From Trueperaceae bacterium (GTDB lineage Bacteria > Deinococcota > Deinococci > Deinococcales > Trueperaceae): a stretch of DNA of 64,000 bases. The notes beneath the pieces were generated by a model, which was not told the origin of the DNA, did not search any database, and saw only the letters and a program-made list of their open reading frames with translations. How positions within the stretch are numbered: the stretch's first letter is position 1; each line of letters starts with the position of its first letter. The translations under genes and the position numbers were made by a program. The stretch spans positions 2,720,001 to 2,784,000 of the forward strand of contig OZ243927.1 in the NCBI GenBank assembly GCA_965213925.1. The letters run 5' to 3'. This document shows positions 11,822-59,222 of the stretch, piece after piece.

Positions 11822-13285
11822 TCAATCCTCCCTTTGTGGTTTAGGTGTCTTGGTCTCCGGCGTTTTGGTCCTGACGCTGTCCGCTTCGGTGTTCGCCTTG
11901 GGCTCTCTGGCAGGCGTCAGCTCCGCCGTTTTGTCCTCGTTCAGCTCCGGATTCGAGAGCCAAGCGTCCTGCGCCCGCTCCTCTTCGGTGGGCTCGTCGC
12001 GCCGTTCGCGCAGCGCCCACGCCCAGTTGAATTCGTTGCGTCCCATGATGCCCTCGGGTCTAAAGATCATGATGACGACTAAGAGCACCGCCAGCGCGAT
12101 GCGCCTCAGCCCGAACGCTTGAAAGGTCCCCTCCCAGTAGCCGAACGCGGGCGCGAGCAGGCTCGCTAGGAGCACGACGCCCCCGAGCCCCGCCAGGATA
12201 AAGATGCCCAAGTTCCAGCGCGGTCTGAGCCGCAGCAGGGTGCGGTAGAGGTAGGTCCCCGCCGCCGCCACGAGGAGTAGCACCCCGGCGGCGAGCGCCC
12301 AGGTGGTGAGTTCGTAGGGCTGCTCCAAGGGGTCGCCGTACTGCAGTACGAACACCACGAGCGCCATGCCGAACAACACGCCCGTGATCGAGCCCGTCCC
12401 GCCAACGCTGATGGCGACCAAGAAGAAAAAGGTCAGGAAGAAGAGGAACGAGTCGAGCCGCGCCGAAGCGAGCCACGAGACGTAGAGCCCGCCCGAGACG
12501 CCCGCGAAAAAAGCGGAGAGCGTAAAGGCTAAGACCTTGTGGTAGGCGAGGTTCACGCCCATCGCCTCCGCCGCGATTTCGTCCTCGCGAATCCCCTGGA
12601 GCGCCCGCCCGTAGGACGAAAACTTGAGCTTCGCCATCACGAAGGTCGTGAACGCCAGGATGCCAAAGGTCCACCAGAGGCTCGTGCCGATGGCGCGGGG
12701 AACTCCCGTGAAGCCGAGCGCGCCATTGGTAAAAGGCGCAAAGAGGTCCGTGGACGCCAGGAGGCGGATGATCTCGCCGAAGCCGAAGGTGACGATGGCC
12801 AAGTAGTCGCCGCGCAAGCGCAAGCTCGGGAAGCCGACGATAAAGCCGAAGACCGACGCCACGAGCCCGCCGATAAAGAGCGCGATGAGAAAGCGTAGCC
12901 AGAGCGTTTCAGGCGTGGTGAGCGCGTCCAAGCCCAGATTATCCAGCCAGTTCTGCACGCTCAAGCTGGCCGTAAAGTCGTTGAGGCGACTTCTGCCGCT
13001 CTCCACGAGGCGCTGCCGGTTCACTTCCGGCAAGATGAGGAGCGCGGTCGTGTAGCCGCCGATGAGCATAAAGCCGTGATGACCGAGCGAGAGAATCCCC
13101 GTGACGCCGTTGATGAGGTTGAGGCTCACCGCGGCGATGCTCCAGATGGCAAAGAGCGCGGAGACTTGGCGCAGTTTAACGCTGTCGCCATTATTGATAA
13201 AGTACAGTACCAGCGCCAAGACGCCTAACCCGGCGAGCGTCAGGAGCGCGTTGCGCCCGCTTTTGTTGAACCCGCGTTCGCTCAT
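11822..13285 (-). CDS. livM: Branched-chain amino acid ABC transporter permease
   Basis: LRLRGDYLAIVTFGFGE, GRALQGIREDEIAAEAMGVN, RPEGIMG. Confidence 0.92.
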   Translation of the reverse strand: MSERGFNKSGRNALLTLAGLGVLALVLYFINNGDSVKLRQVSALFAIWSIAAVSLNLINGVTGILSLGHHGFMLIGGYTTALLILPEVNRQRLVESGRSRLNDFTASLSVQNWLDNLGLDALTTPETLWLRFLIALFIGGLVASVFGFIVGFPSLRLRGDYLAIVTFGFGEIIRLLASTDLFAPFTNGALGFTGVPRAIGTSLWWTFGILAFTTFVMAKLKFSSYGRALQGIREDEIAAEAMGVNLAYHKVLAFTLSAFFAGVSGGLYVSWLASARLDSFLFFLTFFFLVAISVGGTGSITGVLFGMALVVFVLQYGDPLEQPYELTTWALAAGVLLLVAAAGTYLYRTLLRLRPRWNLGIFILAGLGGVVLLASLLAPAFGYWEGTFQAFGLRRIALAVLLVVIMIFRPEGIMGRNEFNWAWALRERRDEPTEEERAQDAWLSNPELNEDKTAELTPAREPKANTEADSVRTKTPETKTPKPQRED

Positions 13286-16091: not shown

Positions 16092-17501
16092 TTAGAGGTC
16101 GAAGTACATCTCATACTCGATCGGCGACGGGCGCAAGCGGGCCGCGTCCACGTCCTCGCGCTTGAGTTCGATATAGCTCGCCAAGAGGTCGTCGGTAAAG
16201 ACGCCGCCTTCCAAGAGGAAGCTGCTGTCTTTCTCTAAAGCGTCGAGCGCCTCTTCCAAGCTCCTGGGAAGCTGCTTGATGCGCCGCGCTTCTCTAGCGG
16301 AGAGCGCGTAGAGATTTTTGTCCACGGGCTTAGGCGGCTCCAGCTCGCGCTTGATGCCGTCCAAACCAGCCATCAGCATGGCGCTAAAGGCGAGGTACGG
16401 GTTCGCCGTGGGGTCGGGCGCACGGTACTCGACGCGCTTGGCTTTGGGCGAGCTTGAATACATCGGCACGCGCACGATAGCGCTCCGGTTGCGCGCCGAA
16501 ATAATGAGGTTGACGGGCGCTTCGTAGCCGGGGACCAAGCGGCGGTACGAGTTCACGCTCGGGTTGGTCAGCGCGGCGAGTGCGGGACCGTGCGTCAGGA
16601 GACCCGCGACGTAGTGCATCGCCATCTTAGATAAGCCGGCGTAACCATCTTCGTCGTAAAAGAGCGGCTCGCCGTCCTTCCAGAGCGATTGGTGGACGTG
16701 CATCCCCGAGCCGTTATCGCCGGAGATCGGCTTAGGCATAAAGGTGGCGGTTTTACCGAACGCCGTCGCCGTGTTGCGCACCACATACTTATATTTGATG
16801 ATGTGGTCCGCCACGGCGAGGAGCGTGTCGAACTTCATGTCGATCTCGGCTTGCCCGGCCGTCGCCACCTCGTGGTGATGAACCTCGATAGGGATGCCGA
16901 TGCCCTCTAACTCCTTGACCATCGCGCTGCGCAGGTCCTGGTATTTGTCCGAAGGGGCGCACGGGAAGTAGCCGCCCTTAGGCTTGACCCAGTAGCCGTC
17001 GCCGACTTCGTCGGGGTCGGTGTGGGCGTCCACGGCGAAGATGCGGTAGCCGAAGTTGTAGGGGTCGGTGCTGTAGGTGACGCCGTCGAAGATGAAGAAC
17101 TCGGCTTCCGGTCCCATAAAGGACGTGTCGGCGATGCCCGAATCCTTGAGGTGCGCCTCGGCGCGCTTGGCGACGCCGCGCGGGTCTTTGCTGTAGAGTT
17201 CGCCGGAAATGGGGTCGGAGATGTCCGCGATCAAGACGAGCGTCTTGTGCGCGGTGAAGGGGTCGACGAATGCGCTGCTCGGATCGGGCGTTAAGAGCAT
17301 GTCCGAGGCTTCGATCTGCTGAAAGCCTTCGATGGACGAGCCGTCGAAACCTAAGCCCTCATCGAAGGCGTCGTCGTCGAAGCCGCTCACCGGCAAGCTG
17401 AAGTGCTGCCAGCGCCCCGCGACGTCAGTGAAACGGATGTCGATGAATTCGACATCCTCGTCTTGGACAAATTTAAGGGTTTCTTTGGCGTTTTGGAACA
17501 T
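16092..17501 (-). CDS. glnA: Glutamine synthetase type I (GSI-beta-like)
   Basis: FDGSSIEGF, GPEAEFFIFD, PKGGYFP, HHEVATAGQ, TFMPKP, NGSGMHVHQSL, adenylylation-site Tyr in KNLY. Confidence 0.97.
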   Translation of the reverse strand: MFQNAKETLKFVQDEDVEFIDIRFTDVAGRWQHFSLPVSGFDDDAFDEGLGFDGSSIEGFQQIEASDMLLTPDPSSAFVDPFTAHKTLVLIADISDPISGELYSKDPRGVAKRAEAHLKDSGIADTSFMGPEAEFFIFDGVTYSTDPYNFGYRIFAVDAHTDPDEVGDGYWVKPKGGYFPCAPSDKYQDLRSAMVKELEGIGIPIEVHHHEVATAGQAEIDMKFDTLLAVADHIIKYKYVVRNTATAFGKTATFMPKPISGDNGSGMHVHQSLWKDGEPLFYDEDGYAGLSKMAMHYVAGLLTHGPALAALTNPSVNSYRRLVPGYEAPVNLIISARNRSAIVRVPMYSSSPKAKRVEYRAPDPTANPYLAFSAMLMAGLDGIKRELEPPKPVDKNLYALSAREARRIKQLPRSLEEALDALEKDSSFLLEGGVFTDDLLASYIELKREDVDAARLRPSPIEYEMYFDL

Positions 17502-17574: not shown

Positions 17575-18032
17575 CACGCGTCCTATTTCAGCTCGACAAA
17601 ATGTAAAATTTTCGGGATACTCGAGCTGCCAAACCGTAAATTAAGAAGAAGACGTATGTTTTTCGAACACAGCGTGTCAATTCTGAAGTATACCTATGTC
17701 GCGAGCCGCGACGAAATGTAGCACCAGATAAGCTTATCATTTCTGTACAAACGTGCAGAGAAATGAACACGCGTTTTCAGAAAAAGCTCGAGAATACCGG
17801 TAAGTGACTTGACATCGGGCACCCTTGCGCGTCATGCTCAGCACAGTTTGGTTTGTTTTGGTGTCAGAGTGCACCGAGACGAGGTGTCGCAGATTTTTTC
17901 TTCATAACGTACGTGTTGAGCGGCATTTTACAGCGCGAGAGCGGTCCTGACCACGTTTCACTCGGCGAACGCTTAGATGCGCACCGAGCGTCAGCGAGAC
18001 CGACAATACCTGCTATCTCTAGGAGGCTTCAT

Positions 18033-19373
18033 ATGGCAGCATCTCAATCCGAAATTCAGGCAACGCTTCAAAACGAAGGCGTGCAATTCTTGCGGCTCCA
18101 GTTCACCGACATCATGGGACATAATAAAAACGTCGAGGTGCCCGCCTCGCAGTTCGAAAAGGCGTTGGACGGCGAAATGATGTTCGACGGCTCGTCGGTC
18201 GAGGGCTTTACCCGCATCGAAGAGTCCGACATGCTCTTAAAGCCCGACTTCGAGACCTTTCTGGTTTTTCCCGACCTCATCGAAGATGCCGGGCGGGGGC
18301 GCGTCGCTCGCCTGATTTGCGACATCACCTACCCCGACGACACGCCCTTCGAGGGCGACCCGCGCCACATCTTAAAGCGCCAAGTCGAGCGCCTGCACAA
18401 GCTGGGCTTCGACGACATGTACGCAGGGCCGGAGCCGGAATTCTTCCTTTTCGAGCGCGATATGAATGGCGGTGTGACCACTGTAACCCACGACGCCGCC
18501 GGGTACTTCGACCTCGCGCCCGTAGACAGAGGGGAGGAGGCGCGGCGCGACATGGTCAATGCGCTCGTCGAGATGGGCTTCGAAATCGAGGCGGCGCACC
18601 ACGAGGTCGCGCCGGGTCAGCACGAGATCGACTTCAAGTACGACAAGGCGGTCGCCACTGCCGACTCGATCGCCACCTTCCGCTTGGTCGTCAAGCGCGT
18701 CGCCATGAACCACGGGCTCCACGCGACCTTTATGCCCAAACCCGTCGCGGGCATCAACGGCTCAGGGATGCACACGCACCTCTCGCTCTTCAAGGATGGC
18801 AAAAACGCCTTTTTTGATGAAGGTGCGGAGCATCAGCTTTCACAGACGGCGCTCCACTGGATCGCTGGACTTTTAGAACATGCCAGCGGCATGGTCGCTC
18901 TAACGAATCCTATCGTCAACTCGTATAAGCGCCTCACGCCAGGCTTCGAAGCGCCTACCAACATCGCCTGGTCCGCCTCGAATAGGAGCGCGATGATCCG
19001 CATTCCGGCGCGGCGCGGCGTCGGCACGCGCAGCGAACTCCGTATGCCCGACCCTACGTGTAATCCGTACTTAGCGCTCGCCGCGATGCTCGCCGCCGGC
19101 ATCGACGGTTTAGAAAACAACCTGACGCCGCCGCCCCCCATCCAGCGCAACATCTACGAAATGAGCGTGCGCGACCGCCGCAAGCACAAAATCAAAGAGC
19201 TGCCGGGGACGCTCCGCGAAGCGGTTCAAGCCTTACGTAAAGACAGAGTGATGAAAAAGGCCTTAGGCGAACATGCGTTCAATCACTTTTTAGACGCGAA
19301 GACGATGGAGTTCGACGCCTACAGAGTGACGGTGCACGACTGGGAACTGCGGGAGTATCTGGCAGAGTTCTAG
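18033..19373 (+). CDS. glnA: Glutamine synthetase type I (GSI-alpha-like)
   Basis: LRLQFTDIMG, MFDGSSVEGFTRIEESDM, GPEPEFFLF, HHEVAPGQHEIDF, GFEAP; AGGAGG RBS before ATG 18033. Confidence 0.96.
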   Translation: MAASQSEIQATLQNEGVQFLRLQFTDIMGHNKNVEVPASQFEKALDGEMMFDGSSVEGFTRIEESDMLLKPDFETFLVFPDLIEDAGRGRVARLICDITYPDDTPFEGDPRHILKRQVERLHKLGFDDMYAGPEPEFFLFERDMNGGVTTVTHDAAGYFDLAPVDRGEEARRDMVNALVEMGFEIEAAHHEVAPGQHEIDFKYDKAVATADSIATFRLVVKRVAMNHGLHATFMPKPVAGINGSGMHTHLSLFKDGKNAFFDEGAEHQLSQTALHWIAGLLEHASGMVALTNPIVNSYKRLTPGFEAPTNIAWSASNRSAMIRIPARRGVGTRSELRMPDPTCNPYLALAAMLAAGIDGLENNLTPPPPIQRNIYEMSVRDRRKHKIKELPGTLREAVQALRKDRVMKKALGEHAFNHFLDAKTMEFDAYRVTVHDWELREYLAEF

Positions 19374-23747: not shown

Positions 23748-23792
23748 CGAAATAAAAATATCACAAGCTAGAGTATTGTGAATTTTATCTTT
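23748..23792 (+). repeat. Dyad site S1 (TCAC-N13-GTGA family)
   Basis: CGAAATAAAAATATCACAAGCTAGAGTATTGTGAATTTTATCTT, between convergent genes. Confidence 0.7.
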
Positions 23793-23882
23793 TACGGTAG
23801 TTTATCGGAAGTTCCAGCCATACTACTTTTAGCGTTTAGGTCGACGAGCCCTACGCTTCGTGCGCTTCATATGGTCGCGCGG

Positions 23883-24824
23883 TCAAGAGACGACGTTCTC
23901 GAGTTCCTCCCCCGCCAAATAGCGTTCGACGTTGCGCCTTATCAGGTCAGCCGCGCCGCGCGGCCTACCCCCGGCGGCGTGCGGCGAGATAAAGGCGTTA
24001 TCCAGGTCCCAGAGAGGCGAGTCGCTCGGCAGCGGCTCCGTCTCGAACACGTCTAACACTGCGCCCGCGAGGGTCCCTTCTCGCAGAGCGCGAGCGAGCG
24101 CCGCTTCGTCGACCGTGTCGCCGCGCCCGACGTTGACGAGCCAAGCGTGGGCGGGCAACTGCCCTAACGTTTCACCGCTGAGCGCGTGCTTGGTCGCCTC
24201 ATTCGAGGGCAGAATCATCACGAGCGCGTCCGTCTGCGGCAAGAGCGCCGCTAGGTCCTCCTCACGGCGCACCGGGAAACCGGCGCGTTCCCCTTCGCTG
24301 CGGGCGACGCCCGTGACCTTCGCGCCGAGCATCGCCAGAAAAGGCGCGAGCGTCTGCGCGATGCTGCCGAAGCCCCAGATGGTCACGTTGGCGTCCTCTA
24401 AGGTGCGAAAATCCCCTTCGGGTTTAACAGGTTGTACGCCGCCGAGTTCGCCCGGCCAACGCGTCTCACGCTGCGCGTCGCGCATCAGATGAAAGCGCCG
24501 CGCGGCGACGAGCAAAAGTCCTAGCGTGTGCTCCGCTACCGTCCGGTCGTGCAAGCCGCTCCCGGACGTGACGGTAATCTCGGAATCAAACCCCGCTCCC
24601 AGCACCTTATCCGGTCCCGCCGCCAGCGACTGAATCCATCTGAGTTTCGTCAAACGCTGCGCCGCGCCACTTAGCATCTCGGGCGTGTTGCCCCACACGA
24701 CGAGCACCTCGGCGTCCTCGTGCTCGGCGGGGAGCTTCTGGTCGACTTCGTAGGGGTGCGCCTCGACCTCTTGGGGTAACGCGGCGAGGTCGAGGTCGGT
24801 CGAGGTAGGATAGAGAAGTTTCAT
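23883..24824 (-). CDS. D-2-hydroxyacid dehydrogenase
   Basis: VAEHTL, GFGSIA, VNVGRG, LDVFETEPL, SPHAAG. Confidence 0.93.
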   Translation of the reverse strand: MKLLYPTSTDLDLAALPQEVEAHPYEVDQKLPAEHEDAEVLVVWGNTPEMLSGAAQRLTKLRWIQSLAAGPDKVLGAGFDSEITVTSGSGLHDRTVAEHTLGLLLVAARRFHLMRDAQRETRWPGELGGVQPVKPEGDFRTLEDANVTIWGFGSIAQTLAPFLAMLGAKVTGVARSEGERAGFPVRREEDLAALLPQTDALVMILPSNEATKHALSGETLGQLPAHAWLVNVGRGDTVDEAALARALREGTLAGAVLDVFETEPLPSDSPLWDLDNAFISPHAAGGRPRGAADLIRRNVERYLAGEELENVVS

Positions 24825-25016
24825 AGCGTTACTTTAGCAGGTTCGCCTGCCAAACCTTTTGATGTGCTGAATTGCCCCGCTGCTTGCAAAGCGTCCTATT
24901 GACGACGTAACCTGCTCCAAAAGGGCACTCGAGCTGCAACTCACTTGAGCCCCTTGGCGCTATCATCGACGTAATATCGTATCGGTTTTACAAACCGCGT
25001 AGAGGTGAGGAGACGT

Positions 25017-25865
25017 ATGGTCAAGTTCGGTGCGCACGCATTTATTTGGACAGGCGACTGGAACCCGGAGGCGGGCGACGAGGTCATCGTTTTAGCCGCG
25101 GAGACCGGTTTTGACTTTCTCGAGATTCCCCTCCTGGAGCCTCACAGTTTTGACGCCAAGAGGCACCGCCAGACGCTCCAAAGCGCGGGGTTAGGGGCGA
25201 CCTGCTCACTCGTTTTGCCTGAGGACGCCCATATGCCCGAGCAGCCGGAAGCGGCAAAAACCTTTTTGCTGCGCGCCTTGGATCAAGTCGAGGCTTTGGG
25301 GAGTCGTTATCTAGGTGGCTGCATCGCCTACCACTTAGGATATCTGACGGGTGCGCCGCCCACGTCCGAAGAGCGAGAGACGGTGGTGCGGGTGCTCAAA
25401 GAGGTCGCGGCGGAGGCGCAAGCGAGGAACATCACCTTGGCGCTGGAAGCGTGCAACCGTTACGAAACGTATCTTTATAACACCCTCGCGGACACAAGAG
25501 CGACCATTGTAGAGGTCGGCGCGTCCAACCTCAAGCTCCACGCCGATACCTACCACATGAACATCGAAGAGGAGGGTTTTGAGACGCCTATCGTCGCCTC
25601 CGCCGACGTGCTCGACTACGTCCACATGAGCGAGAGTCACCGGGGCGCGGTGGGTACGGGCACGGTGAATTGGAACGAGGTGTGGTCGGGCTTGGCGAAG
25701 ATCGACTTCGGGGGCAGTCTCGTGCTGGAATCTTTCGCCGCCATCAACCCGACCTTAGCCGCGGCGACGTGCGTGTGGCGTCCGCCGAACGAACCCTCTG
25801 ACGTGATCGCGAGAGAGGGTTTAGCCTTTCTCAAGGCGGGCGCACAGAAGCACGGTCTTCTCTAA
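25017..25865 (+). CDS. Sugar phosphate isomerase/epimerase (D-psicose/tagatose 3-epimerase family)
   Basis: GFDFLEIP, LEACNRYE, DTYHMNIEE, HMSESHRG..GTG, LESF. Confidence 0.9.
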   Translation: MVKFGAHAFIWTGDWNPEAGDEVIVLAAETGFDFLEIPLLEPHSFDAKRHRQTLQSAGLGATCSLVLPEDAHMPEQPEAAKTFLLRALDQVEALGSRYLGGCIAYHLGYLTGAPPTSEERETVVRVLKEVAAEAQARNITLALEACNRYETYLYNTLADTRATIVEVGASNLKLHADTYHMNIEEEGFETPIVASADVLDYVHMSESHRGAVGTGTVNWNEVWSGLAKIDFGGSLVLESFAAINPTLAAATCVWRPPNEPSDVIAREGLAFLKAGAQKHGLL

Positions 25866-26035
25866 GGTGTTTGATTAAGAGGCTTAGTCGTGTACAAAGC
25901 CCTCCTCGAGCCTTTCTCCAGGAAGAGCGGCGAGACATCACGAGTTAGGTTGAGAAGCAGCGCCGAAGCTGGTAATGCACCGCCGCTAAAGTAGACCTCT
26001 TGCAAACGTACCACCTCATCCAGTGATTGCGTTTG

Positions 26036-26221
26036 TACAGATGCCGGTTGATTACCCCATAAACTCCGTTATGAAATTTTGCCTTTCGCATTCGCGAAAA
26101 CTGCGTAACCGGCAAACGCTTCGCGCTTCGTTGGAGTTGATTCCGTGCTCATCGGAATCCGTAATCTTTTCAACTCGTTACACTCCGGGTAACTCCCGTA
26201 GGAATTACCCGGAAACGGTAT
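26036..26221. repeat. SRE/SNR-like dispersed repeat(s)
   Basis: TACAGATGCCGGTTGATTACC...CGGAATCCGTA, then hairpin TCCGGGTAA...TTACCCGGAAACGGTA; shares TTGATTACC.CA.AAA and AATTACCCGGAAACGGTA with 39854-40002. Confidence 0.55.
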
Positions 26222-26347
26222 TACTCGTATTCGTTCCACTCGGCAAAAGCGGAAGCCAGACAGACGCCTGCTTCTTCGCAAGAGGTCTAGTACATAGGAC
26301 TAGTACATAGGAACAGTTGGGTCGCGAGGCTGCGGAAGACTAAAACG

Positions 26348-27376
26348 CTAGCGCACCTCGAGCCCCAGCTCGAGCAGCCGCTCGATCAGTTCACCGTAGG
26401 GTACGCCCGTCTCTTCCCAAAGTTTAGGGTACATGCTCGTCGCCGTAAAGCCCGGCATGGTGTTGATCTCGTTGAGGTAGAGCGTCTCGCCCGCCAAAAA
26501 GAAGTCCACCCTCGCCAAGCCCGCCGCGTCAACCGCCAAAAATGCGTCGACGGCAAGCTGCCGACACCGCGCGGCTACCGGTTCAGGCAGATGGGCGGGG
26601 ATGTCTAACTGAGCGCAGCCCTCGGTATATTTGGTGCTGTAGTCGTAAAAGTCACCGCGAAAGCGAATCTCGCCGACCACGCTCGCGCTCGGCGCGTCGT
26701 TGCCGAGCACGCCGACCTCCAACTCCCTCGCGCCGCTAAGCCCCGCCTCTACGATGATGCGGCGGTCGTGCTGCGCCGCCAGCGACAGCGCCTCGCGCAA
26801 GCTCGCCTCATCCTCCGCCTTGCTGATCCCGACCGACGAGCCCAAGTTGGCAGGTTTCACAAACACGGGGTAGGGGAGACCTCGCAAGGCTTGCAGGACC
26901 TCGTCGGGGAGCGCGAGCCACGCGCTCCGGCTCACCGCCTTATAAGGAACCTGCGGCAAGCCGTGCGCGGCAAAAACCGCCTTCATCATCAGCTTGTCCA
27001 TCCCTACAGCGCTCCCTAAAACGTCTGAGCCGACGAAGGGAAGTTTCATCAGTTTGAGGAGCCCTTGTACGCTGCCGTCCTCCCCGAAAGGACCGTGCAG
27101 CAGCGGAAAGACGACGTCGAAAGCGGAAGGGTCGAGACGCTGAAGGGGTTCACTTGACGCCAGTTTATACGCGTGCGCACCGCCCTTTGCGCTGAGGATT
27201 CGCGCCGACGCTTCCGCCCGCAGAAGTTGCCCCGCTCTGTTGATGATCAAAGGCTTAATGTCGAAACGTTCGCCCGCAGCCGCTACCACCGAACGCGCCG
27301 AGGCGAGCGACACCTCGTGCTCTTCGGACTGACCACCGCAGAGGAGGAGCACTCGAGGTTTCCGAGATTCAGCCAT
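26348..27376 (-). CDS. ddl: D-alanine--D-alanine ligase
   Basis: GGQSEEHEVS, LHGPFGEDG, KPANLGSSVG, YDYSTKY, NEINTMPG. Confidence 0.97.
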   Translation of the reverse strand: MAESRKPRVLLLCGGQSEEHEVSLASARSVVAAAGERFDIKPLIINRAGQLLRAEASARILSAKGGAHAYKLASSEPLQRLDPSAFDVVFPLLHGPFGEDGSVQGLLKLMKLPFVGSDVLGSAVGMDKLMMKAVFAAHGLPQVPYKAVSRSAWLALPDEVLQALRGLPYPVFVKPANLGSSVGISKAEDEASLREALSLAAQHDRRIIVEAGLSGARELEVGVLGNDAPSASVVGEIRFRGDFYDYSTKYTEGCAQLDIPAHLPEPVAARCRQLAVDAFLAVDAAGLARVDFFLAGETLYLNEINTMPGFTATSMYPKLWEETGVPYGELIERLLELGLEVR

Positions 27377-27561
27377 AATAACGATCTAACGTGTGTAAGT
27401 TACACATACTAGAGGTAGTCTACGCCGCTCGAGCCCGAGAGTCAAGCTGCGATGACGAAGAGGTTGAGCCTTCACGGAAGAGTGAACAACCGTGTAGAAA
27501 AGGTCTAAAAGTTTTATGTATACGCCGTAAGTACGTTTACAGAGTTAGCTTCAACTTCCTC

Positions 27562-27732
27562 AATACACTGTCAGCTAAGTTTTGCTACACTGTTGTCACC
27601 CTATTCACGAAGTACGGCTTCACGAAGTACGGCGAAGTCTGGTTGTCGAAAGGTCTCGTTTTGCAATCTCTTACAAAGGAGGAGGTGAAGGCAGAGATTC
27701 TTTCACTCCACCTTACTACGTTCAGAACTACA
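27562..27732 (-). mobile_element. Second (inverted, shorter) copy of the 5183-5442 MITE-like element
   Basis: AATACACTGTCAGCTAAGT, GTCACCCTATTCACGAAGT and GGTCTCG...CAATCTC...GAGATTCTTTCACT match the reverse complement of 5255-5442. Confidence 0.7.
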
Positions 27733-27739
27733 AAACGCT

Positions 27740-27777
27740 AAAAATTTCACGAGCTAGCATATTGTGAAAAATTTCTT
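27740..27777 (+). repeat. Dyad site S2
   Basis: AAAAATTTCACGAGCTAGCATATTGTGAAAAATTTCTT. Confidence 0.75.
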
Positions 27778-27963
27778 AAAATAGACTATCTCACATTACC
27801 CAAAAGGTTCGCAGTGTGCCTTCTTCTGCTAGTATCGGACGCGCCAGTAAGCGGGGTGGGGTCTCACCTCCGCGCAGTGCAGAGGAGAAATGACCTCTTA
27901 TTATTGACCAACAGGGGAGAGCGGACGCCCTGACGCAAACACACGGCGTTCTAACCACGCGCT

Positions 27964-29364
27964 TTACCACTCCTCAACGCCTTCGTGGATTTCCCTATCG
28001 TTCATCTTAGCGTAGCGCCGCGCCGTCTCGAGATTCGCCTGGCGCAGATGCTGTGCGACCCGCGCTAAGTCGTTGAACTGCTTGTGAAGCCGCGTGCCCG
28101 CGCCGTGTCTGAGCCCGTGAACCGCTCTGCCTTCGTAGGTAATGCCCGCTTGCAAACAGACGCGCTGAAATCGCTCCCTCGCCCGGTAGGCTCGGTAGGG
28201 AAGGACGAACCCGGTGTCCGCTCCGCTCGCCAGCTCCGCCAGCGCCGTTTTGAGCCGACGGCTCAGGGCGACCCGTCCCGTCTTTCCACCTTTACCTTTG
28301 CGGACCACCAACTCGCCCGCTTGCCAGTCGACGTCTCGCCAGCGCAAGGCGCTGATTTCAGCGATGCGCAGGCCCGCGTGAGCGCCCAACAAGATCATGA
28401 CCTCGTCCGGTCCTTCGGCCACCTCCAAAAGCCGTTCGACTTCGGCGACCGAATACGCGCCGCGCTTCTCCCAGGGAGCAACGGGGTCCTTGGCGACCTT
28501 GACGTTTTCGAACGGGGCGGCTTGCGTCGCGCCGCTCCAACGCAAGGCTTTGTAGAGGGTTCTCGCCGCCGCAAGCTTAACCTGCACTGTTGACGGGCTG
28601 AGCGTTCTCACCTCACCGTCCGCGCCCAGCTTTGGCTCCTGCGTCTGCGGGTGTAAGGCGGGTCGCTGCTCGAGCATTCTGACCCATGCTACGCCCGCGT
28701 CGCGCGAGGGACGGATCAGGTTTTCGTGACCCCAGTCCTCCACGAGGTCCAAGACGCCGCGCCGATAGTTCTCGCGCGTTCGCTCGCTCACCTTAGAGCC
28801 TTTGGTGCCGTGTAGGGTCAAGTAGGCGTCAGTGAGCGCCCAGAGCTGTTCGCTGTCGCGCTTTTGACAGGCGGCGACCACGTCACGTCGCAAATCTCTT
28901 TGAGAGGTCCGCGCCAAGGCGTCCGCGCGCCGGGTCGGGTCATCCTGATAGCGTTCCAAAGACAGCGCTGTGCCAGCGGCGCGCTCTTCACGAGGTTTGG
29001 AGGCGGGCGCGGAACTTGCTTCCAAAGCCGTTTTATAGAGTCGCTTTAATCCTTGCCTGACGATGGCGTGAACACGCTCTTTGCTGACCCCTAAGTCTTG
29101 CGCCACTGCCGCGAGCGTTTCGGGTCTGCCACCTAGCCCCAGCGTCCGGCTAAGAACGGCGCGCTGTTTTTCGGGCATATGTGTAGAGAAACGCTCGAGC
29201 AGTGCGCCCAGTGCCGCTGACCTTTCCGGCTCCGCGCGAAGCTCGCGCAGGTTGGGCAAGCGTTCATCCGGATAGACACAGTTCAGTGTGGAGATGGAGG
29301 TTTTTGCAGGGACTTCGCTGCCGGTTTGAGACGTGCCGGGGCTCGAGCTTTTACAGTTCGCCAT
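27964..29364 (-). CDS. Tyrosine recombinase/integrase with N-terminal sigma70 region-4-like HTH
   Basis: GLRIAE (R), KGKGGK (K), HGLRH (HxxR), LRQANLETARRY (Y); N-terminal EKQRAVL..LGLGG.PETLAAVAQDLGVSKERV; TATATT is 6 nt before ATG 29364. Confidence 0.9.
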   Translation of the reverse strand: MANCKSSSPGTSQTGSEVPAKTSISTLNCVYPDERLPNLRELRAEPERSAALGALLERFSTHMPEKQRAVLSRTLGLGGRPETLAAVAQDLGVSKERVHAIVRQGLKRLYKTALEASSAPASKPREERAAGTALSLERYQDDPTRRADALARTSQRDLRRDVVAACQKRDSEQLWALTDAYLTLHGTKGSKVSERTRENYRRGVLDLVEDWGHENLIRPSRDAGVAWVRMLEQRPALHPQTQEPKLGADGEVRTLSPSTVQVKLAAARTLYKALRWSGATQAAPFENVKVAKDPVAPWEKRGAYSVAEVERLLEVAEGPDEVMILLGAHAGLRIAEISALRWRDVDWQAGELVVRKGKGGKTGRVALSRRLKTALAELASGADTGFVLPYRAYRARERFQRVCLQAGITYEGRAVHGLRHGAGTRLHKQFNDLARVAQHLRQANLETARRYAKMNDREIHEGVEEW

Positions 29365-29375
29365 AAAGTTAATAT

Positions 29376-29401
29376 ACCCACCCAAGTATCCTTGGGTGGG
29401 T
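29376..29401. promoter_or_regulatory. Perfect palindrome abutting the recombinase -10 box
   Basis: ACCCACCCAAG-TATC-CTTGGGTGGGT. Confidence 0.6.
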
Positions 29402-29547
29402 GAACAGATTACAATTCATTTTGGACAGGTGGAGTGTCTATACGTAGCAGGTGCCGTAGGTAAAGCGGTAGTTCACTATCACCTCCAGCCAGTGAGGGCT
29501 TATCAGGAAGACCTCACTGGCTTCGGGCAAATGTGTATAAGCACATC

Positions 29548-30690
29548 CTAAGCGGTCTCGAGCACCTCGTGACGCTTAGACTCTAACGTTTCCATCAGGC
29601 TGTCAAAGGGTTTGACAAATTTCTGAACCCCTTCGTCCACGAGCTGCTGCGTGATCTCGTCCAGGTCGATGCCCAAGTCGCCTAGCTTATCGAGCGTTCG
29701 CTTCGCTTCGTCAACGTTATCTTCTAAACGCGCCTCGGGCTGACCGTGGTCGCGGTACGCCTCGAGCGTCTCCATCGGCAGCGTGTTGACCGTCTCCGGG
29801 CCGATAAGCGCTTCGACGTACTTTACGTCTTCGTAAGCGTCGTCTTTAACGCTAGTGCTCGCCCAGAGTAGACGCTGCGGCTTGGCACCCTTCTCCGCGA
29901 GAGCCTGAAAGCGCTCGCCCTCGAAGACCTCTTTGTAGATTTGATAGGCTTGCTTCGCGCTGGCGATTGCGACCTCGCCGCGCAGGGCTTTAGCGGTGTC
30001 GGCGTCCTCGGGGCTCGCCTCGGCGATCTGGTCGAGCTTACCGTCGATGAGCGCGTCGATGCGGCTCAGGAAAAAGCTGGCGACAGATGCGATGCCCTCA
30101 ACCGACTCGCCACCCTCCAAGCGCTTCTCCAAGCCTTCAAGATAGGCGCTCGTCACCTCGCGGTAGCGCGATAAACTAAACAGGAGCGTCACGTTGACGC
30201 TGATGCCCTCACTGATAAGCTGTGTGATCGCCTCTAAGCCCTCATTCGTGCCCGGCACCTTGATAAAGACGTTCGGGCGGTCCAGCATCTTCCAAAGCTT
30301 GCGCCCCTCTTCGACAGTGCCTTGAGTGTCGTGCGCGAGATGCGGCGAGACCTCCAAGCTCACAAAGCCGCGCTCGCCGTCATGCTCGTCGTAGAGCGGG
30401 CGAAAGCGGTCTGCGGCGGCGCGAACGTCCTCGGTCGCCAGCGTGAGGTAGATCTCCTCGGTCTCTTTCCCGTCTTGCGCCAGCTCGCGGATCGTACCGT
30501 CATACTCGTCGCTGTCAGCGATCGCTTTTTCGAAGATGGACGGGTTCGAGGTGATGCCGCGCAGCCCGTCCTCGTCGATGAGCTTATCCAACTCGCCGCT
30601 CTCGATAAGGCTGCGCCGAATGTCGTCGAGCCAAGGGGCTTGTCCGAAGTCGCTGAGCTTTTTAAGTGAATTCATCGTCTCCTCCTCCAT
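29548..30690 (-). CDS. tal: Transaldolase (long type)
   Basis: PWLDDI, GITSNPSIF, VSLEVSP, IKVPGT, NVTLLFS, QRLLWASTS. Confidence 0.95.
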   Translation of the reverse strand: MEEETMNSLKKLSDFGQAPWLDDIRRSLIESGELDKLIDEDGLRGITSNPSIFEKAIADSDEYDGTIRELAQDGKETEEIYLTLATEDVRAAADRFRPLYDEHDGERGFVSLEVSPHLAHDTQGTVEEGRKLWKMLDRPNVFIKVPGTNEGLEAITQLISEGISVNVTLLFSLSRYREVTSAYLEGLEKRLEGGESVEGIASVASFFLSRIDALIDGKLDQIAEASPEDADTAKALRGEVAIASAKQAYQIYKEVFEGERFQALAEKGAKPQRLLWASTSVKDDAYEDVKYVEALIGPETVNTLPMETLEAYRDHGQPEARLEDNVDEAKRTLDKLGDLGIDLDEITQQLVDEGVQKFVKPFDSLMETLESKRHEVLETA

Positions 30691-30884
30691 GTTTTTCTGC
30701 AGTCGTTACGTCGTGCGGTTAGCTTCTAGATGTAATACTTTTTTCTCGAGTTAAATTTGCTGGAATAAGCACCCTCCCCTGTCATACTCTTTTTGCTGAC
30801 GCCGGAACGTCACAGGTCATACGTTTCTTGCGTTTTCTCCTCCACTATAGACCTACAGCGGTTTATGCACAAGGTTCGCTAATA

Positions 30885-30927
30885 AAGAAATTTTTCACGA
30901 CACTTTAGCTCGTGAATTTTTTGTTTC
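30885..30927 (-). repeat. Dyad site S3
   Basis: Reverse complement AAAAAATTCACGAGCTAAAGTGTCGTGAAAAATTTCTT, 32/38 identical to S2. Confidence 0.75.
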
Positions 30928-31101
30928 TTTGAGGTTCTCGTTTGTTTCACACCTCTCACTGACCTTCCCTTATAAGCGCCCTTGCGAGCGACGGGCGACT
31001 AAGCGTAACGGGCAAAACGAGTAAACTTGACGCTATGCGGTAAATATTCGTCACCGACTTGAGGAAAAACGCGGGGCAGCGAAGCGCATAAGGAGTGGGG
31101 A

Positions 31102-31782
31102 ATGAAAGACAAGCTTCGTGAGTATCGTTCTAAGGACATAAGCGTGACCTGGAGCAAAACGCGGTGTATCCATTTTGCTGCGTGCGTTCATCATCTGCCA
31201 GACGTTTTCGATACAGATCAGAAACCTTGGGTACAGCCAGATCGAGCGGACGCAGAAGAGGTCGCTCAAGTCGTCGTGCGGTGTCCGACTGGAGCCTTGC
31301 ATTTTGAGCGCAAGGATGGCGGCGCGGCGGAAGAGGTGCCGGAGCGCAACACCGTTCAAGTCGCGCCTCATGGTCCTTTGTACCTGCGGGGTGACATTAG
31401 AATTACACTCGATCAGCCTGACCAAGAAATTCTTTTGAGGGATACGCGCGTGGCGCTCTGCCGCTGCGGAGCCTCGGCGTATGGTCCTCTTTGCGACGGA
31501 TCGCACCGAGAGATAGGGTTTAGAGACCGGGGTGAGCTTGGTAACGTCCACCTTGACGGGGAGAGGAGAGCTGGCAGGCTCGAGGTCTCCCCTACCCCTA
31601 ACGGACCCCTTAGGCTGCGCGGACCTTTCGAGCTTATCGGCTCGGACGATGAGCGTGAAAAAGGTACACGCACCGCCCTCTGTCGCTGCGGCGCGTCGGG
31701 CAACAAACCCTTTTGCGACGGGACACACCGGGCGATTAACTTTACGTCTGCTGACGCGGTGATAGACGGCGCTCATGAATAG
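31102..31782 (+). CDS. Divergent 4Fe-4S domain plus two CDGSH iron-sulfur domains
   Basis: CIHFAACVHHLPDVF..PWV..CPTGAL; CRCGASAYGPLCDGSH; CRCGASGNKPFCDGTH. Confidence 0.92.
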   Translation: MKDKLREYRSKDISVTWSKTRCIHFAACVHHLPDVFDTDQKPWVQPDRADAEEVAQVVVRCPTGALHFERKDGGAAEEVPERNTVQVAPHGPLYLRGDIRITLDQPDQEILLRDTRVALCRCGASAYGPLCDGSHREIGFRDRGELGNVHLDGERRAGRLEVSPTPNGPLRLRGPFELIGSDDEREKGTRTALCRCGASGNKPFCDGTHRAINFTSADAVIDGAHE

Positions 31783-33844
31783 ACGGGTATGTGGCGTTCT
31801 TTTGGGGACGCTTACTCTGCTCATTTGTCCTGTTGCCTTCGCCGCGGGCGGAATGCCTGAGTTCTTCGCAGAGGTCTCTATCCTCATCGTTGCGAGCGCT
31901 GCGATTGGCTATCTCTGCTTCCGTCTGGGGCTCGTGCCCATTATTGGCTTTTTGCTCACCGGCGTGCTCTTAGGAATGACCGGGCTCGTCGACAACCCCG
32001 AACTCGTCGACGCAGTGGCAGAGGTCGGTGTTATCTTGCTGCTCTTCACCATCGGCATCGAGTTCAGTTTGGATAACCTCATGCGCATCCGGCGGCTTTT
32101 GTTCGTCGGCGGCGGCGTGCAGGTGGGGCTCGTTACGCTTACCGTCACGGTGATCATGCTACTTGCCGGGGTGGACTGGCGGGCGTCGCTCTTTACGGGA
32201 ATGCTGATCGCCCTTTCGTCCACCGCCATCGTCATGAAGCTCTTGGACAGCCGCGGCGAGACGAACGCGCCCTCAGGTCAGATTTCACTGGGCATCCTCA
32301 TCTTTCAGGACTTGGCGGTGGTTGGCATGGTCATCCTCGTGCCGATTTTAGGGGGTGAAGGCGCGACGTTCGGGGGTGTCGCCCTCTCGCTCGGCAGCGC
32401 GGCGGCGATCATCGCGGCGATTCTCCTCTTAGCGCGACGGGTCATGCCGACGATGTTAGAAGCCTTGGCGCGCACCTGCTCGCAGGAGATTTTTGTCCTG
32501 GGGGTCATCGCGGTTTGCTTCGGAACGGCCTATTTAACGGGTTTAGCAGGCGTCAGTCTTTCATTGGGCGCGTTCTTGGCAGGCTTACTCGTAAGTGAGA
32601 GCCGCTTCGGGTCGCAGGCGTTAGGGGAGATTCTGCCCCTACAAATCATCTTTAGCGCGGCGTTTTTCGTCTCGGTGGGCTTGCTTTTAGACGTGATGTT
32701 CTTGCTGCAAAATTTACCCGTCATCCTCGCGGTGATCGTGAGCGTGTTGCTTATCAAAACGCTAGCGGCAACCGCCGGAGCTAAACTACTCGGCTATCCG
32801 CTTGGCGTTTCACTCGCGGCGGGGCTCACCTTAGCGCAGGTCGGTGAATTTTCATTCGTGTTGCAGCGCTCAGGCAGCGATGTCGGACTCTTTCCCGCGG
32901 GCTTAGAGGGTGCAGGCGAGCAGACGATTATCGCAGCGACGGTTCTGCTGATGGGCATCACGCCTAACTTGGCGACGCTGGGCAACGCCATCAACGCGCG
33001 CTTAGAGCGCCGCCGCAAAGCGCAGGAAAGAGCGGCGTTTGGCGCGGACGAGGGTGAAGCGGAAGGATTAGATGACCTTAACGACCACGTGCTGATCGCG
33101 GGCTACGGCGCGGGCGGCAAACTGCTCGCTTCGGTTTTGCAGCGCGAAGAGGTCCCCTTTGGCATCGTGACGCTGAGCCCGACCGGGGCGACCGAAGCGG
33201 AAGAGGCGGGGATGCGGGCGATGCGCGGGGACTACACGAAGAACTTTATTCTGAACCAAGCCGGGGTTTTGCGCTCGAGGATGCTCGCCATCCTCGACGA
33301 CGAGCCCGAGCACGCAGGAAGGGTCATCGAGGTGGTGAGGGGCTTTAACAAAGAACTCCCTATTCTTACTAGAGCCCAATTCTATAGCGGCGCACTCTCC
33401 TTGAAGCAAGCAGGCTCGACCACCTCTACCGCTGAAGAAATCGAGAGTTTAGTCCCCCTTCTCAGCGACGTTTTGACCTCTTACGGCTCGCGCCGCCGCG
33501 ACCCGAGCAGCGCCCGCTCGCTTCTCATTGAAAACGAGCCCAACGTGCGCGTGGAGACGGTGCAGCTTAGCGAAGCGCAGCGCACTTCAGAAGCGTGCAG
33601 CCACCAGGACGAGGCAAAAGTCGTCACACCTGACGCCGAGGTCTGCTTGGAATGCGTCGAACAGGGCGACACCTGGGTGCACCTGCGCGTCTGCATGACC
33701 TGCGGACATGTCGGCTGCTGCGACTCGTCGAAGAATAAGCACGCGAGCAACCACGCAGAGAAAAAAGCGCACCCCATCATCAAGTCGTTTGAAAAGGGGG
33801 AAAGCTGGGCGTACTGCTACACCGACGAGGTAACGCTGGCATAG
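31775..33844 (+). CDS. CPA2 (Kef-type) cation:proton antiporter with RCK/TrkA-N domain and C-terminal UBP-type zinc finger
   Basis: AEVGVILLLFTIGIEFS, SSTAIV, LIFQD, AQVGEFSFV, HVLIAGYG; CSH..CLEC..WVHLRVCMTCGHVGCCDSSKNKHA. Confidence 0.92.
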   Translation: MNRRVCGVLLGTLTLLICPVAFAAGGMPEFFAEVSILIVASAAIGYLCFRLGLVPIIGFLLTGVLLGMTGLVDNPELVDAVAEVGVILLLFTIGIEFSLDNLMRIRRLLFVGGGVQVGLVTLTVTVIMLLAGVDWRASLFTGMLIALSSTAIVMKLLDSRGETNAPSGQISLGILIFQDLAVVGMVILVPILGGEGATFGGVALSLGSAAAIIAAILLLARRVMPTMLEALARTCSQEIFVLGVIAVCFGTAYLTGLAGVSLSLGAFLAGLLVSESRFGSQALGEILPLQIIFSAAFFVSVGLLLDVMFLLQNLPVILAVIVSVLLIKTLAATAGAKLLGYPLGVSLAAGLTLAQVGEFSFVLQRSGSDVGLFPAGLEGAGEQTIIAATVLLMGITPNLATLGNAINARLERRRKAQERAAFGADEGEAEGLDDLNDHVLIAGYGAGGKLLASVLQREEVPFGIVTLSPTGATEAEEAGMRAMRGDYTKNFILNQAGVLRSRMLAILDDEPEHAGRVIEVVRGFNKELPILTRAQFYSGALSLKQAGSTTSTAEEIESLVPLLSDVLTSYGSRRRDPSSARSLLIENEPNVRVETVQLSEAQRTSEACSHQDEAKVVTPDAEVCLECVEQGDTWVHLRVCMTCGHVGCCDSSKNKHASNHAEKKAHPIIKSFEKGESWAYCYTDEVTLA

Positions 33845-33848
33845 GTCG

Positions 33849-33874
33849 TGGGTGGACCCAGATGGGTCCACCCA
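33849..33874. terminator. Hairpin after the antiporter
   Basis: TGGGTGGACCC-AGAT-GGGTCCACCCA. Confidence 0.5.
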
Positions 33875-33926
33875 GCTCTCTCCTAGTTCACGGATTCAAA
33901 CCTGCAATCATATCTGAATCATATCT

Positions 33927-33971
33927 GATAATTTATTTCACAATACTTCTGCTTGTGATTTAATTATTTCG
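33927..33971 (-). repeat. Dyad site S4
   Basis: Reverse complement CGAAATAATTAAATCACAAGCAGAAGTATTGTGAA, 29/35 identical to S1; between convergent genes. Confidence 0.7.
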
Positions 33972-51975: not shown

Positions 51976-52038
51976 CTACTTCTAAGCGGATGTGCCTATA
52001 TCAAAAACGTGCACGACTCGGCTAAACGTATCTCTAAA

Positions 52039-52079
52039 AAGATTTATTTCACAACATTTTGGAACGTGAAATGAATCTT
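52039..52079 (-). repeat. Dyad site S5 (more divergent)
   Basis: AAGATTTATTTCAC-AACATTTTGGAAC-GTGAAATGAATCTT (TCAC-N13-GTGA). Confidence 0.55.
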
Positions 52080-52507
52080 GCGTAAATTTATCGAGGAGCT
52101 TGATTTCGGTGTGGCGTTTCATTATAGGAACACTCGCGACGTTCGCTTGGTCCTAGCCGCTTAATTTAGACTTTTTAGCTTATCGCTGCGCTGAAGCGAG
52201 GGCTGCTCCACCCTCTTTAGAAGAGCGTCAGGAGCCAGCTTCTACACGAGAAGTGAAGCGGGTTAGGCGCTACCCCTTTGACAAGGAGCGTTGGGAAAAC
52301 TTACACTTGAGAATGTAGTTTGACATTCTATGGTCGATAGCCTCCCAATCATCGTACTTGACTATGGAACTTATTACAGAGACACGTATCTTTTACCGCT
52401 CGAGACTGAGGTTTGAGCGACGTAGAGTTGCGAATCTCAGTGAGGAGGTCGCTCCGCAAGTCGCAAAAGGTGTTAAATCTAGTTAGAGATACTTTAAGGA
52501 GGACTCA

Positions 52508-54892: not shown

Positions 54893-56284
54893 TCAGGGCG
54901 CTCTCCCCTCTTCGATCAGCGCGTTGACCTTCTCCACGTACTGCTCCGGCTTCGCCTTGCGCTCCAAGCCGCCCGCCGACATATAGCGCACCTTGCCGAA
55001 GACCTCGCGCTCCGTCCAGCCCCGGTCATGCTGCCCGAACACCCAAGCGACGTTCGCGAACGAGTTCGGGTCGCGCCCATCTAAAAAGTACTTGTTGTTG
55101 AGATATAAGGTTGTCTCGTAAGCGTAGCGGGGCGTATTGCTCCACTGTAAAATTTTCTTGCCCCAGTACATCCGCATGTAGTTGTGCATATATCCTGTAT
55201 GGCGCATCTCCCGCATGGCGGCGTTCCAGTAGTCGTCGTGAGTTTGGGCGTCCTCGAGTTCTTGCCGCGTATACACGTACTCGCGCTCGTCGTCCTTATG
55301 CTCCTCTAAGGTTTCTTGCGCCCAGTCGGGCAAGCTCTTGAAGGAGTCGTACGTGTCGGGCATGTAGTACACGAAGTTCATCGGCAGCTCGCGGCGGATG
55401 ATGACCTCTTCTAAGTACGAGTCGATGTTGTTTTGCGAGGTGTGCGCCTCTTGGATTTGCAGCGCGATGTAAACAGGTGAAATCTGCCCGAAGTGGAGGT
55501 ACTTGCTCATGTGCGACACGTCGCTGGTTTGCGGCTGGTTGCGATTCGAGTCGTACGAGCTGAATTTGTTTTCGATGAAGTTGTCCAAAATCGCTCTGCC
55601 TTGCGAGGTGCCCCCCTTAAAGAGGTGGCTGACGGGCTCGACACTCTTGTCGAGTTTGAGTTCATCCACCAACGCCTCGACGTCGCTCAGGTCGAGCCCG
55701 TCCACGCTCATGTTCTTGGAATACTTGTCTAAAGGCGTCGTGCGCAGTTCGACCAAGAAGTCGTCTAAGTGCTTTTGGATTTTCGGGCGAATCGTGCGGG
55801 CGGCGTACTCCTTTTTGTCCGAGACGAGTTCGACCGGCACGACCACGTCCGACTCGACTTGCGTGACGAGACACGGCGCTTCATCCGCCACGCGCCCCCG
55901 CCACTGACGCTGGTTGCGCATGTACCCTCTATCGCAAACGATCAGGGAGGCGTCCTGTCCGAGTCGCAACGCCACCTCATCGGGTGAACCTCGCTGCACC
56001 ACGAACTTGATGTCACGCTCTTTTAGCGAGGTCTCGACCTCTTGTAGCCCCTCCAGCATAAAGGTGTAGTGCCGCGCGTTCGCCTCGGGGTAGTCGTCCA
56101 TCAGCCCGAAGCAGACCAAGAGGCGCTGCTCTAAATCGTTAGCTCTCTGGATAGCGTACTCGAGCGCGTGGTTATATTCCGTGCGCTGCGAACTCTGCAT
56201 CCAGTAGAGGACGTAGGACCCGTCACGTACCTCTTTACCATTAAGCTGTTGAATTCGCGCGTCTTGGATGAATTTGGTTGCCAT
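54893..56284 (-). CDS. phr: Class II CPD photolyase
   Basis: VLYWMQSSQR..NHALEYA, EYAARTIRPKI, SKYLHFGQIS, MHNYMRMYWGKK, DGRDPN; start at MATKF. Confidence 0.95.
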   Translation of the reverse strand: MATKFIQDARIQQLNGKEVRDGSYVLYWMQSSQRTEYNHALEYAIQRANDLEQRLLVCFGLMDDYPEANARHYTFMLEGLQEVETSLKERDIKFVVQRGSPDEVALRLGQDASLIVCDRGYMRNQRQWRGRVADEAPCLVTQVESDVVVPVELVSDKKEYAARTIRPKIQKHLDDFLVELRTTPLDKYSKNMSVDGLDLSDVEALVDELKLDKSVEPVSHLFKGGTSQGRAILDNFIENKFSSYDSNRNQPQTSDVSHMSKYLHFGQISPVYIALQIQEAHTSQNNIDSYLEEVIIRRELPMNFVYYMPDTYDSFKSLPDWAQETLEEHKDDEREYVYTRQELEDAQTHDDYWNAAMREMRHTGYMHNYMRMYWGKKILQWSNTPRYAYETTLYLNNKYFLDGRDPNSFANVAWVFGQHDRGWTEREVFGKVRYMSAGGLERKAKPEQYVEKVNALIEEGRAP

Positions 56285-56655
56285 GAAGTTACTGTGCCGT
56301 GAGTCAATAGTTTTTTCAGTTGGGCAGAGCGCTTTCTCGAGGCGTTGAATTTGTCCGCAGACTCTAAAGTTAAAAATTTTTAATGCAGCACAACTTGTAA
56401 CTCTCGCTGTGATTCCTACACGCCTCTTTCGACCTCTTATCCCTAATATAGACAATACCTCGCAATGGGATGACCGAGGAAAACCCTACAAGCTGTAGAG
56501 CAAGCCAGTGGTGAAGCGGTTTAATACCGCTTTCGCCCGTGACCTTGCTGCTTTGCAGCATCTTAGAGGAGAACAAAGCGAACGAGAGAGATTACAAAGT
56601 CGATCCACACAACACGAGCCCAAAAACAGATTCTATTTATTCCGAGGAGCAAAAC

Positions 56656-56790
56656 ATGTCCGCAATCCTGATAAGCGCGTTGTCCATTTCCATTTCACTA
56701 ATGGCACTTGCGGCTTACAATTCGCACAAGCAAAAAGTTCTAGCAAACCCCGCAACGGTTGGTACATCGGATGAGCGAGGTATGGCCTAA
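56656..56790 (+). CDS. Small 44-aa peptide with a hydrophobic N-terminus
   Basis: GAGGAG RBS; stop TAA overlaps the next ATG (TAATG). Confidence 0.5.
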   Translation: MSAILISALSISISLMALAAYNSHKQKVLANPATVGTSDERGMA

Positions 56791-58779: not shown

Positions 58780-58871
58780 AAATGCCACGCCTCCTCAACA
58801 GAAACTCGCTCAAACTGCAAGGACAGTTTGAGCGAGTTTCTCGAAGAAGAGGTCGACACTTTGAAAGCCCG

Positions 58872-59159: not shown

Positions 59160-59222
59160 GCTGTTCTCCTCAACTGCGACACCTTACCAAGTTGTAAGGG
59201 CGTGAACCCTTGACGCTTAACT

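Follow-up and report, generated by a model that had tools for sequence, protein, structure and literature searches.

Around the gene of a tyrosine recombinase in a Trueperaceae bacterium lies a set of similar AT-rich sites, each built as two inverted arms about an asymmetric centre, and the question raised by this locus is what these sites are for and whether the recombinase acts on them. The stretch analysed, called the window throughout, comprises 64,000 nucleotides (positions 2,720,001 to 2,784,000, forward strand, of contig OZ243927.1, assembly GCA_965213925.1). Four of the sites, S1 to S4, had been described in the original prediction as a candidate multi-site inversion or cassette system. 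They are copies of a polar element of about 45 bp which, by sequence comparison, is conserved in Trueperaceae and some Deinococcus, and whose few copies are clustered and point at the recombinase gene from both sides. They are read here, tentatively and with slightly less than even confidence, as dif-like or XDS-like docking sites that would mark the recombinase's chromosomal zone, XDS being sites of the Bacillus subtilis terminus to which XerD reportedly binds.

A polar element in five copies

Sites S1 to S4 were all located where they had been predicted, and a fifth copy, S5, was identified at 52,035-52,082. The sites are listed below with the recombinase gene and its neighbour; scores are given in bits.

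23748..23795, plus strand: S1, between the convergent GNAT (plus) and 2-hydroxyacid dehydrogenase (minus) genes; 61.2 forward, 13.2 reverse
27734..27781, plus strand: S2, between the recombinase gene and ddl; 49.1
27964..29385, minus strand: tyrosine recombinase gene, 473 residues from the first start; the database copy has 466 residues from the ATG at 29364
29548..30690, minus strand: transaldolase gene (tal), co-oriented with the recombinase gene and upstream of it, inside the innermost site pair
30881..30928, minus strand: S3, in the divergent region between the transaldolase (minus) and CDGSH/ferredoxin (plus) genes; 57.7
33924..33971, minus strand: S4, between the convergent Na/H exchanger gene (plus) and a hypothetical open reading frame (ORF) of 160 residues (minus); 54.5
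52035..52082, minus strand: S5, 18 kb beyond the S4 region, after tRNA-Trp; 41.4

The centre of S2 lies 207 bp past the stop codon of the recombinase gene, in the upstream region of ddl, about 380 bp from its start, and the core of S5 begins 157 bp after tRNA-Trp, about 450 bp upstream of a Na/H antiporter gene. The pattern TCAC-N13-GTGA was matched five times in the window (starts at 23761, 27747, 30895, 33938 and 52049), against a mean of 0.61 in 100 dinucleotide-preserving shuffles of the window, none of which reached five (maximum, 3). As for the core that had been proposed, its dyad stood, but its written form with four unspecified bases in the middle gave no match even when two mismatches were allowed; the corrected form has five and reads TCAC-RAGC-N5-TRTY-GTGA. 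The identities previously counted by hand are near the values obtained in register, which are 30/39 for S1 and S2, 31/39 for S2 and the reverse complement of S3, and 28/39 for S1 and the reverse complement of S4. No weaker copies were detected in the window using a matrix built from the five sites.

Similarity among the sites spans about 45 bp, and the flanks beyond that are unrelated. With a G+C content of 22-29%, against about 59% in the window, the sites account for five of the 14 AT-rich 45-bp patches found there. The five window sites were pooled with 19 from relatives into a 24-site matrix, in which the element comprises a GAAAYAAAAA tract, a TTCAC arm followed by R, N, N and C, about five variable purine-rich bases, then T, R, T and Y, a GTGAA arm and a different A/T flank, ending in MACTT in many relatives. 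The two TTCAC arms are 11 bp apart and the variable centre measures 5-9 bp, according to where the arms are taken to end; this is the general build of a tyrosine recombinase core, with inverted arms and an asymmetric centre. The arms are invariant over the pooled sites, with no covariation, and the asymmetric centre is conserved too. A third TTCAC half-site, giving a GTGAA-N4-TTCAC palindrome, is carried by five of the 24.

Since the element is asymmetric, its orientation is unambiguous: with the 24-site matrix, forward scores range from 41 to 65 bits, and reverse scores do not exceed 13 bits for the window sites or 17.6 bits for any site. No other sequence above 5 bits was found in the window or in 18 loci from the genome scan described below, at a null rate of 0.2 matches per 100 kb. 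The polarity of +,+,-,- proposed for S1 to S4 holds, and the full window series is +,+,-,-,-. No two sites of one genome agree in their central 5-7 bases; all five are distinct in the window and again in the contig CBDCDJ010000007.1. Non-identical spacers had been noted earlier as a caveat.

Conservation and convergence on the recombinase gene

A collection of 185,579 genomes, one per species and without the source genome of the window, was scanned using a strict pattern that fits all five window sites, flank positions included; because the pattern was fitted to these sites, the counts in other genomes are lower bounds. The scan yielded 31 loci, 17 of them from Deinococcota (Trueperaceae or Deinococcus), of which 16 are titled Trueperaceae, Deinococcales or Deinococcus and one, the unlabelled L026, groups with them. 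In the columns left free by the pattern, leave-one-out scores were +3.9 to +28.7 for the 17 Deinococcota loci and -38 to +0.3 for 13 of the 14 others. The fourteenth, L012 ('Patescibacteria'), has a high flank score; it lies within a gene with a Pfam domain and was set aside as a chance match. As only the 17 loci share the unconstrained columns, the element is taken to be a Deinococcota feature. A matrix rescan of these loci added only two sites, each within 3 kb of another site.

Each of the 24 sites lies in an intergenic spacer, which it often occupies entirely. Their contexts (5 convergent, 6 divergent and 13 tandem) show no fixed side, and their neighbours are unrelated housekeeping genes, among them ddl, tal, dnaE, ligA, smpB, sucCD and transporter genes. 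Syntenic placements were seen after dnaE in L003/L007 and L031, and beside ligA/Bmp in L008 and L028.

Where long contigs were available, the copies are few and clustered. The 4.3-Mb contig CBDCDJ010000007.1 holds four strict sites, all inside 254 kb (about 8e-4 for four random points), and a fifth, variant site was found within the same 254 kb by the matrix rescan; the 3.9-Mb contig CBDCKW010000009.1 holds two strict sites, 97 kb apart. Comparison of 42 window proteins with the loci by tblastn matched the recombinase in two of the 17 Deinococcota loci (L001 and L003), no more than 4 kb from a site, and no other window protein was shared, save for a weak LepA-family cross-match to a BipA-type GTPase in L021. 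The order in L003 is SMC-domain gene, site (+), recombinase (-), hypothetical gene (-), site (-), dnaE (+), site (-), and the unit of plus site, minus-strand recombinase gene, minus-strand gene and minus site is common to the window and the otherwise non-syntenic L003.

With the recombinase gene on the minus strand, the sites to its left are all + and those to its right all -, in 12 of 12 cases over three genomes (left/right counts: window, 2/3; CBDCDJ, 2/3; CBDCKW, 0 seen/2); the chance of such convergence is about 5e-4, assuming independent sites. A fourth homologue, P0145, is encoded on a 28,160-bp Trueperaceae contig, presumed to be JBOFGY010000315.1 (28,160 bp), on which a + site was found at 4.1 kb and a - site at 19.8 kb. 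Since the 16 kb of it that were examined do not contain the gene, its place would be either in the interval between these sites or within the final 4.3 kb. The link between sites and recombinase that had been proposed is thus supported by few, clustered copies, a conserved association and 12/12 sites pointing at the gene, in place of an even genome-wide spread with no relation to it.

In D. murrayi and D. rhizophilus one strict site each was found (L014 3994-4041 and L025 3991-4038), in syntenic positions one gene beyond sucCD, and in both the second arm and a third TTCAC form the GTGAA-N4-TTCAC palindrome. We take sucCD to lie near the middle of D. radiodurans chromosome 1.

The recombinase as candidate binder

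The recombinase has a sigma-70 region-4 helix-turn-helix (HTH) at residues 69-118, in its N-terminus, and a Phage_integrase domain. The HTH fusion is common to about 30 homologues at 58-73% identity, and relatives of about 330 residues are without it. The catalytic set of tyrosine recombinases (R, K, H, R, H/W, Y) is complete in the window protein, and R340, K365, H423, R426, H446 and Y458 are invariant in 10/10 aligned homologues. By NCBIfam the protein is not XerC, XerD, XerA, XerS or XerH (best scores of 33-57 bits against cut-offs of 220-335), and the closest solved structure is archaeal XerA (4a8e, E=4.5e-12). Trueperaceae commonly carry relatives with 50-73% identity, frequently encoded on contigs of megabase size. 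Phylogenetic analysis of 25 sequences placed the proteins of the window, L003 and P0145 together in a Trueperaceae clade (support 96/94), to which none of eight Deinococcus plasmid paralogues belongs.

Taken together, these observations agree with a landmark array bound by protein and centred on the chromosomal Xer-like locus, and do not agree with a regulon, an RNA or a mobile relic. The element would be a sequence-specific protein-binding site on which the lineage's chromosomal Xer-like recombinase may dock, around its own gene. Because each site has its own centre, the sites would not exchange with one another; at most, a site might recombine with its sister copy. The array would then act as a landmark of the chromosome zone, probably the terminus, in which the recombinase works. 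Passages in two papers describe XerD as binding dif-like XDS sites in the terminus without recombining (PMC11840125, PMC12322038). The present array resembles XDS in having several dif-like sites scattered in one zone, XDS being bound by Xer without exchange, as landmarks at which SMC is unloaded; it differs in that the candidate binder is not XerD by NCBIfam, the polarity is strictly convergent and the gene itself is central. The single-recombinase Xer systems XerS/difSL and XerH/difH have the gene beside the site and one site per chromosome. Here, too, a single Xer-like recombinase specific to the lineage is encoded right next to candidate sites, but the latter number at least five, have different centres and lie on both sides of the gene. 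The array also departs from the Xer/dif rule of one site per replicon, with five copies in the window and five within 254 kb in CBDCDJ010000007.1.

The plasmid paralogues of the recombinase (37-43% identity) occur on 64 plasmid records, 63 of them from Deinococcus and including MP1 of D. radiodurans, and their genes adjoin ParA and toxin-antitoxin genes. At six of eight plasmid loci a different dyad, with arms of 10-11 bp and a 6-bp spacer, stops 2-27 nt short of the start codon, and four of the six have the form CCC..TAA-N6-TTA..GGG:

L033 5700-5745: plasmid dyad
L034 264-291: plasmid dyad
L035 5964-5991: plasmid dyad
L036 ~11970-11998: plasmid dyad
L037 11974-12001: plasmid dyad
L039 12018-12045: plasmid dyad

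Recombinase and dyad together look like a plasmid multimer-resolution module. Symmetric TAA-N6-TTA dyads were found neither in the window nor in L001 or L003, and alignment of the tal-recombinase spacer with its L003 and L001 counterparts gave no common element.

Two further elements of the window deserve mention as candidate recombinase sites. A perfect GC-rich 10-6-10 dyad at 29376-29401 ends 11 nt before the recombinase ATG, the position occupied by the plasmid dyads. It resembles five terminator-like hairpins after other window genes (six perfect dyads in all against 0.03 expected), does not recur in L001 or L003, and could be either a tal terminator or a site of the family type. A dif-like ATAA-N6-TTAT element at 26052-26079 (core 26059-26072) is the sole match in the window, against 0.16 expected, and 16 of 100 shuffles contained one; its position is the 480-bp spacer separating the convergent TIM-barrel and ddl genes, at a distance of 1.9 kb from the recombinase gene, and it was not found in L001, L003 or L007. 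The same spacer holds a 13-base unit in tandem twice (26287-26312), just past the ddl stop.

Several results weigh against docking by the recombinase in a terminus zone or lend it no support. The strongest evidence against TTCAC as the crossover site of the family is the plasmid dyads: since these differ, the family's usual site type looks unlike TTCAC, and no TTCAC element was found beside the plasmid paralogues at any of eight loci (144 kb), although the distance of the window protein from the plasmid proteins is about the same as its distance from those of L001 and L003. The L001 recombinase sits on a long branch of unsure place, grouped with the plasmid proteins. Canonical dif has two inverted arms of about 11 bp around a centre of 6-8 bp, with inner ATAA and TTAT giving the motif ATAA-N6-TTAT, and this inner motif is absent from the TTCAC sites. 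The long-range polarity is thinly based, as only four of the 12 oriented sites lie over 10 kb away from the gene. Around the two Deinococcus sites, no recombinase gene occurs within 4 kb. The tests for a terminus position were uninformative: around 28.7 kb no sign of a terminus or an origin came from GC skew, from GGGNAGGG and other KOPS-like motifs (KOPS, FtsK-orienting polar sequence) or from unbiased 6-8-mer polarity, and GC skew oriented by site direction was negative in 10/17 segments and positive in 7/17.

A literature search returned no report of this motif or of a recombinase site in Truepera. For D. radiodurans, one paper states in the passage concerned that neither KOPS polarity nor a canonical dif could be identified (PMC13342612), another reports six Xer-like genes across the replicons, its relevant passage describing no native dif (PMC9764985), and a third gives about 750-1750 kb as the position of the ter region on chromosome 1 (PMC11758949). 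Fork traps, like dif sites and KOPS polarity, have yet to be identified in Deinococcus (PMC13342612). A bolder version, which we consider rather unlikely, is that the array represents a hitherto unrecognised Deinococcota chromosome-end architecture: a handful of polar, heterospecific sites would serve the phylum's Xer-family recombinase as binding sites and all point at its gene, and they would work both as a fork trap or SMC barrier and as the missing dif zone. As a conserved, low-copy, polar family, the sites are a candidate for how a radiation-resistant phylum marks the zone of sister-chromosome resolution. If the recombinase does dock on them, they would join XDS of Bacillus as the second case in which a recombinase serves as a positional landmark; if another protein binds them, they would be a new kind of polar chromosomal barrier.

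Such another protein is the subject of the main rival explanation, which we judge somewhat unlikely: the sites would belong to a different chromosome-processing protein, as a replication-fork trap or an SMC/FtsK barrier toward the terminus, and the Xer-like gene would be central only because its dif is there. Tus-Ter of Escherichia coli and RTP-Ter of B. subtilis consist of low-copy polar sites in two opposed groups, with the binder gene beside the innermost ones. The array shares this plan, as its 12/12 sites form two opposed low-copy polar groups that switch within a 3-kb interval and the presumed binder's gene stands beside the innermost sites; the different dyad of the plasmid paralogues, the two other candidate recombinase sites of the window (29376-29401 and 26059-26072) and the lack of a recombinase near the Deinococcus sites also speak for it. 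However, no Tus or RTP domain was found by Pfam among 52 window ORFs and 116 locus ORFs, the conserved central gene encodes a catalytically intact recombinase and is the sole gene common to the central intervals of the window and L003, and the skew and k-mer polarity tests lend a terminus position no support. As noted, the 10-6-10 dyad is like terminator hairpins and neither alternative site recurs in L001/L003. Operators of a global transcription factor, such as a CRP- or Rex-like dimer, would account for dyad arms, A/T flanks, intergenic placement and the six of 24 sites in divergent promoter regions, and the palindrome formed by the third TTCAC in five of 24 sites is CRP/Rex-like. We nonetheless find this improbable: five of 24 sites are convergent and 13 tandem with no fixed side, the neighbours have no common function and, in contrast to CRP or Rex operators, no coherent downstream gene set is seen, the copies are few, clustered and aimed at one locus, and conservation extends to the asymmetric centre. 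Among the window genes, none for Rex or CRP was seen. S1 and S4 do sit between convergent gene ends, as had been claimed, and a promoter and terminator scan gave nothing consistent at the sites, with a promoter-like match at S1 alone.

The inversion or cassette system originally proposed, in which the sites are crossover sites of the local recombinase that invert or shuffle modules of 3-4 kb, is now quite improbable. Pairs of sites are inverted and nested around an intact recombinase gene, they fall at operon borders and the association is conserved; as in pdif modules and shufflons, multiple recombinase-type dyad sites bound small gene modules. In pdif modules, unlike here, the sites alternate (the series here is + + - - -), and the present array is further set apart by centres that all differ, in the window and in CBDCDJ alike, by housekeeping cargo atypical for a switch, and by a chromosomal setting conserved across genera. 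An invertible switch or shufflon calls for identical crossover regions in partner sites, and every pair here differs in this region; distinct crossover centres and enclosed housekeeping genes together make an inversion or cassette system unlikely. S1/S2 and S3/S4 are moreover direct repeats around housekeeping genes, and since S1/S2 enclose ddl, exchange between them would excise it. The site-recombinase-site order is the same in the window and L003, with no rearranged order in these two comparable genomes. It is very improbable, finally, that the sites are remnants or termini of a mobile element with the recombinase as cargo, or that they are terminators or small structured RNAs. The innermost pair does resemble inverted ends around the recombinase gene, and the sites fold into hairpins (-6.3 to -11 kcal/mol, z -1.3 to -2.3), but flanks past about 45 bp are unrelated, sites are syntenic across species, and the hairpins are weak, with arms that are invariant and not covarying. 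Rfam and tRNA scans of the window found tRNA-Trp only, with no Rfam family match at the sites.

Other features of the locus

The gene map that had been described, with sites at module borders, agrees with a Pfam scan of the window ORFs. From the left, the order is GNAT (+), S1, 2-hydroxyacid dehydrogenase (-), TIM-barrel isomerase (+), ddl (-) and S2, followed by recombinase (-), transaldolase (-), S3, CDGSH/ferredoxin (+), Na/H exchanger (+) and S4, and then by a hypothetical gene (-) and an FAD monooxygenase gene (-). Neither dnaA nor another origin gene was found near the array among the window ORFs scanned. The Na/H exchanger (31775-33844) combines a TrkA_N domain with a C-terminal zf-UBP zinc finger, and fusions of this kind are unusual in bacterial transporters.

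Elsewhere in the window, two glutamine synthetase genes are arranged head to head (16092-17501, minus strand; 17853-19373, plus strand). The G+C content falls to 0.50-0.53 at 56000-60000, against about 0.59 elsewhere, and this region, which may be acquired DNA, holds two ORFs without Pfam domains (56790-58337 and 58243-58779). Among the scanned loci, an intein-containing dnaE with a LAGLIDADG domain was noted in a Trueperaceae metagenome-assembled genome (L031 1-3048), and an intein-containing gyrB was noted on the unrelated contig of L012 (2096-5038).

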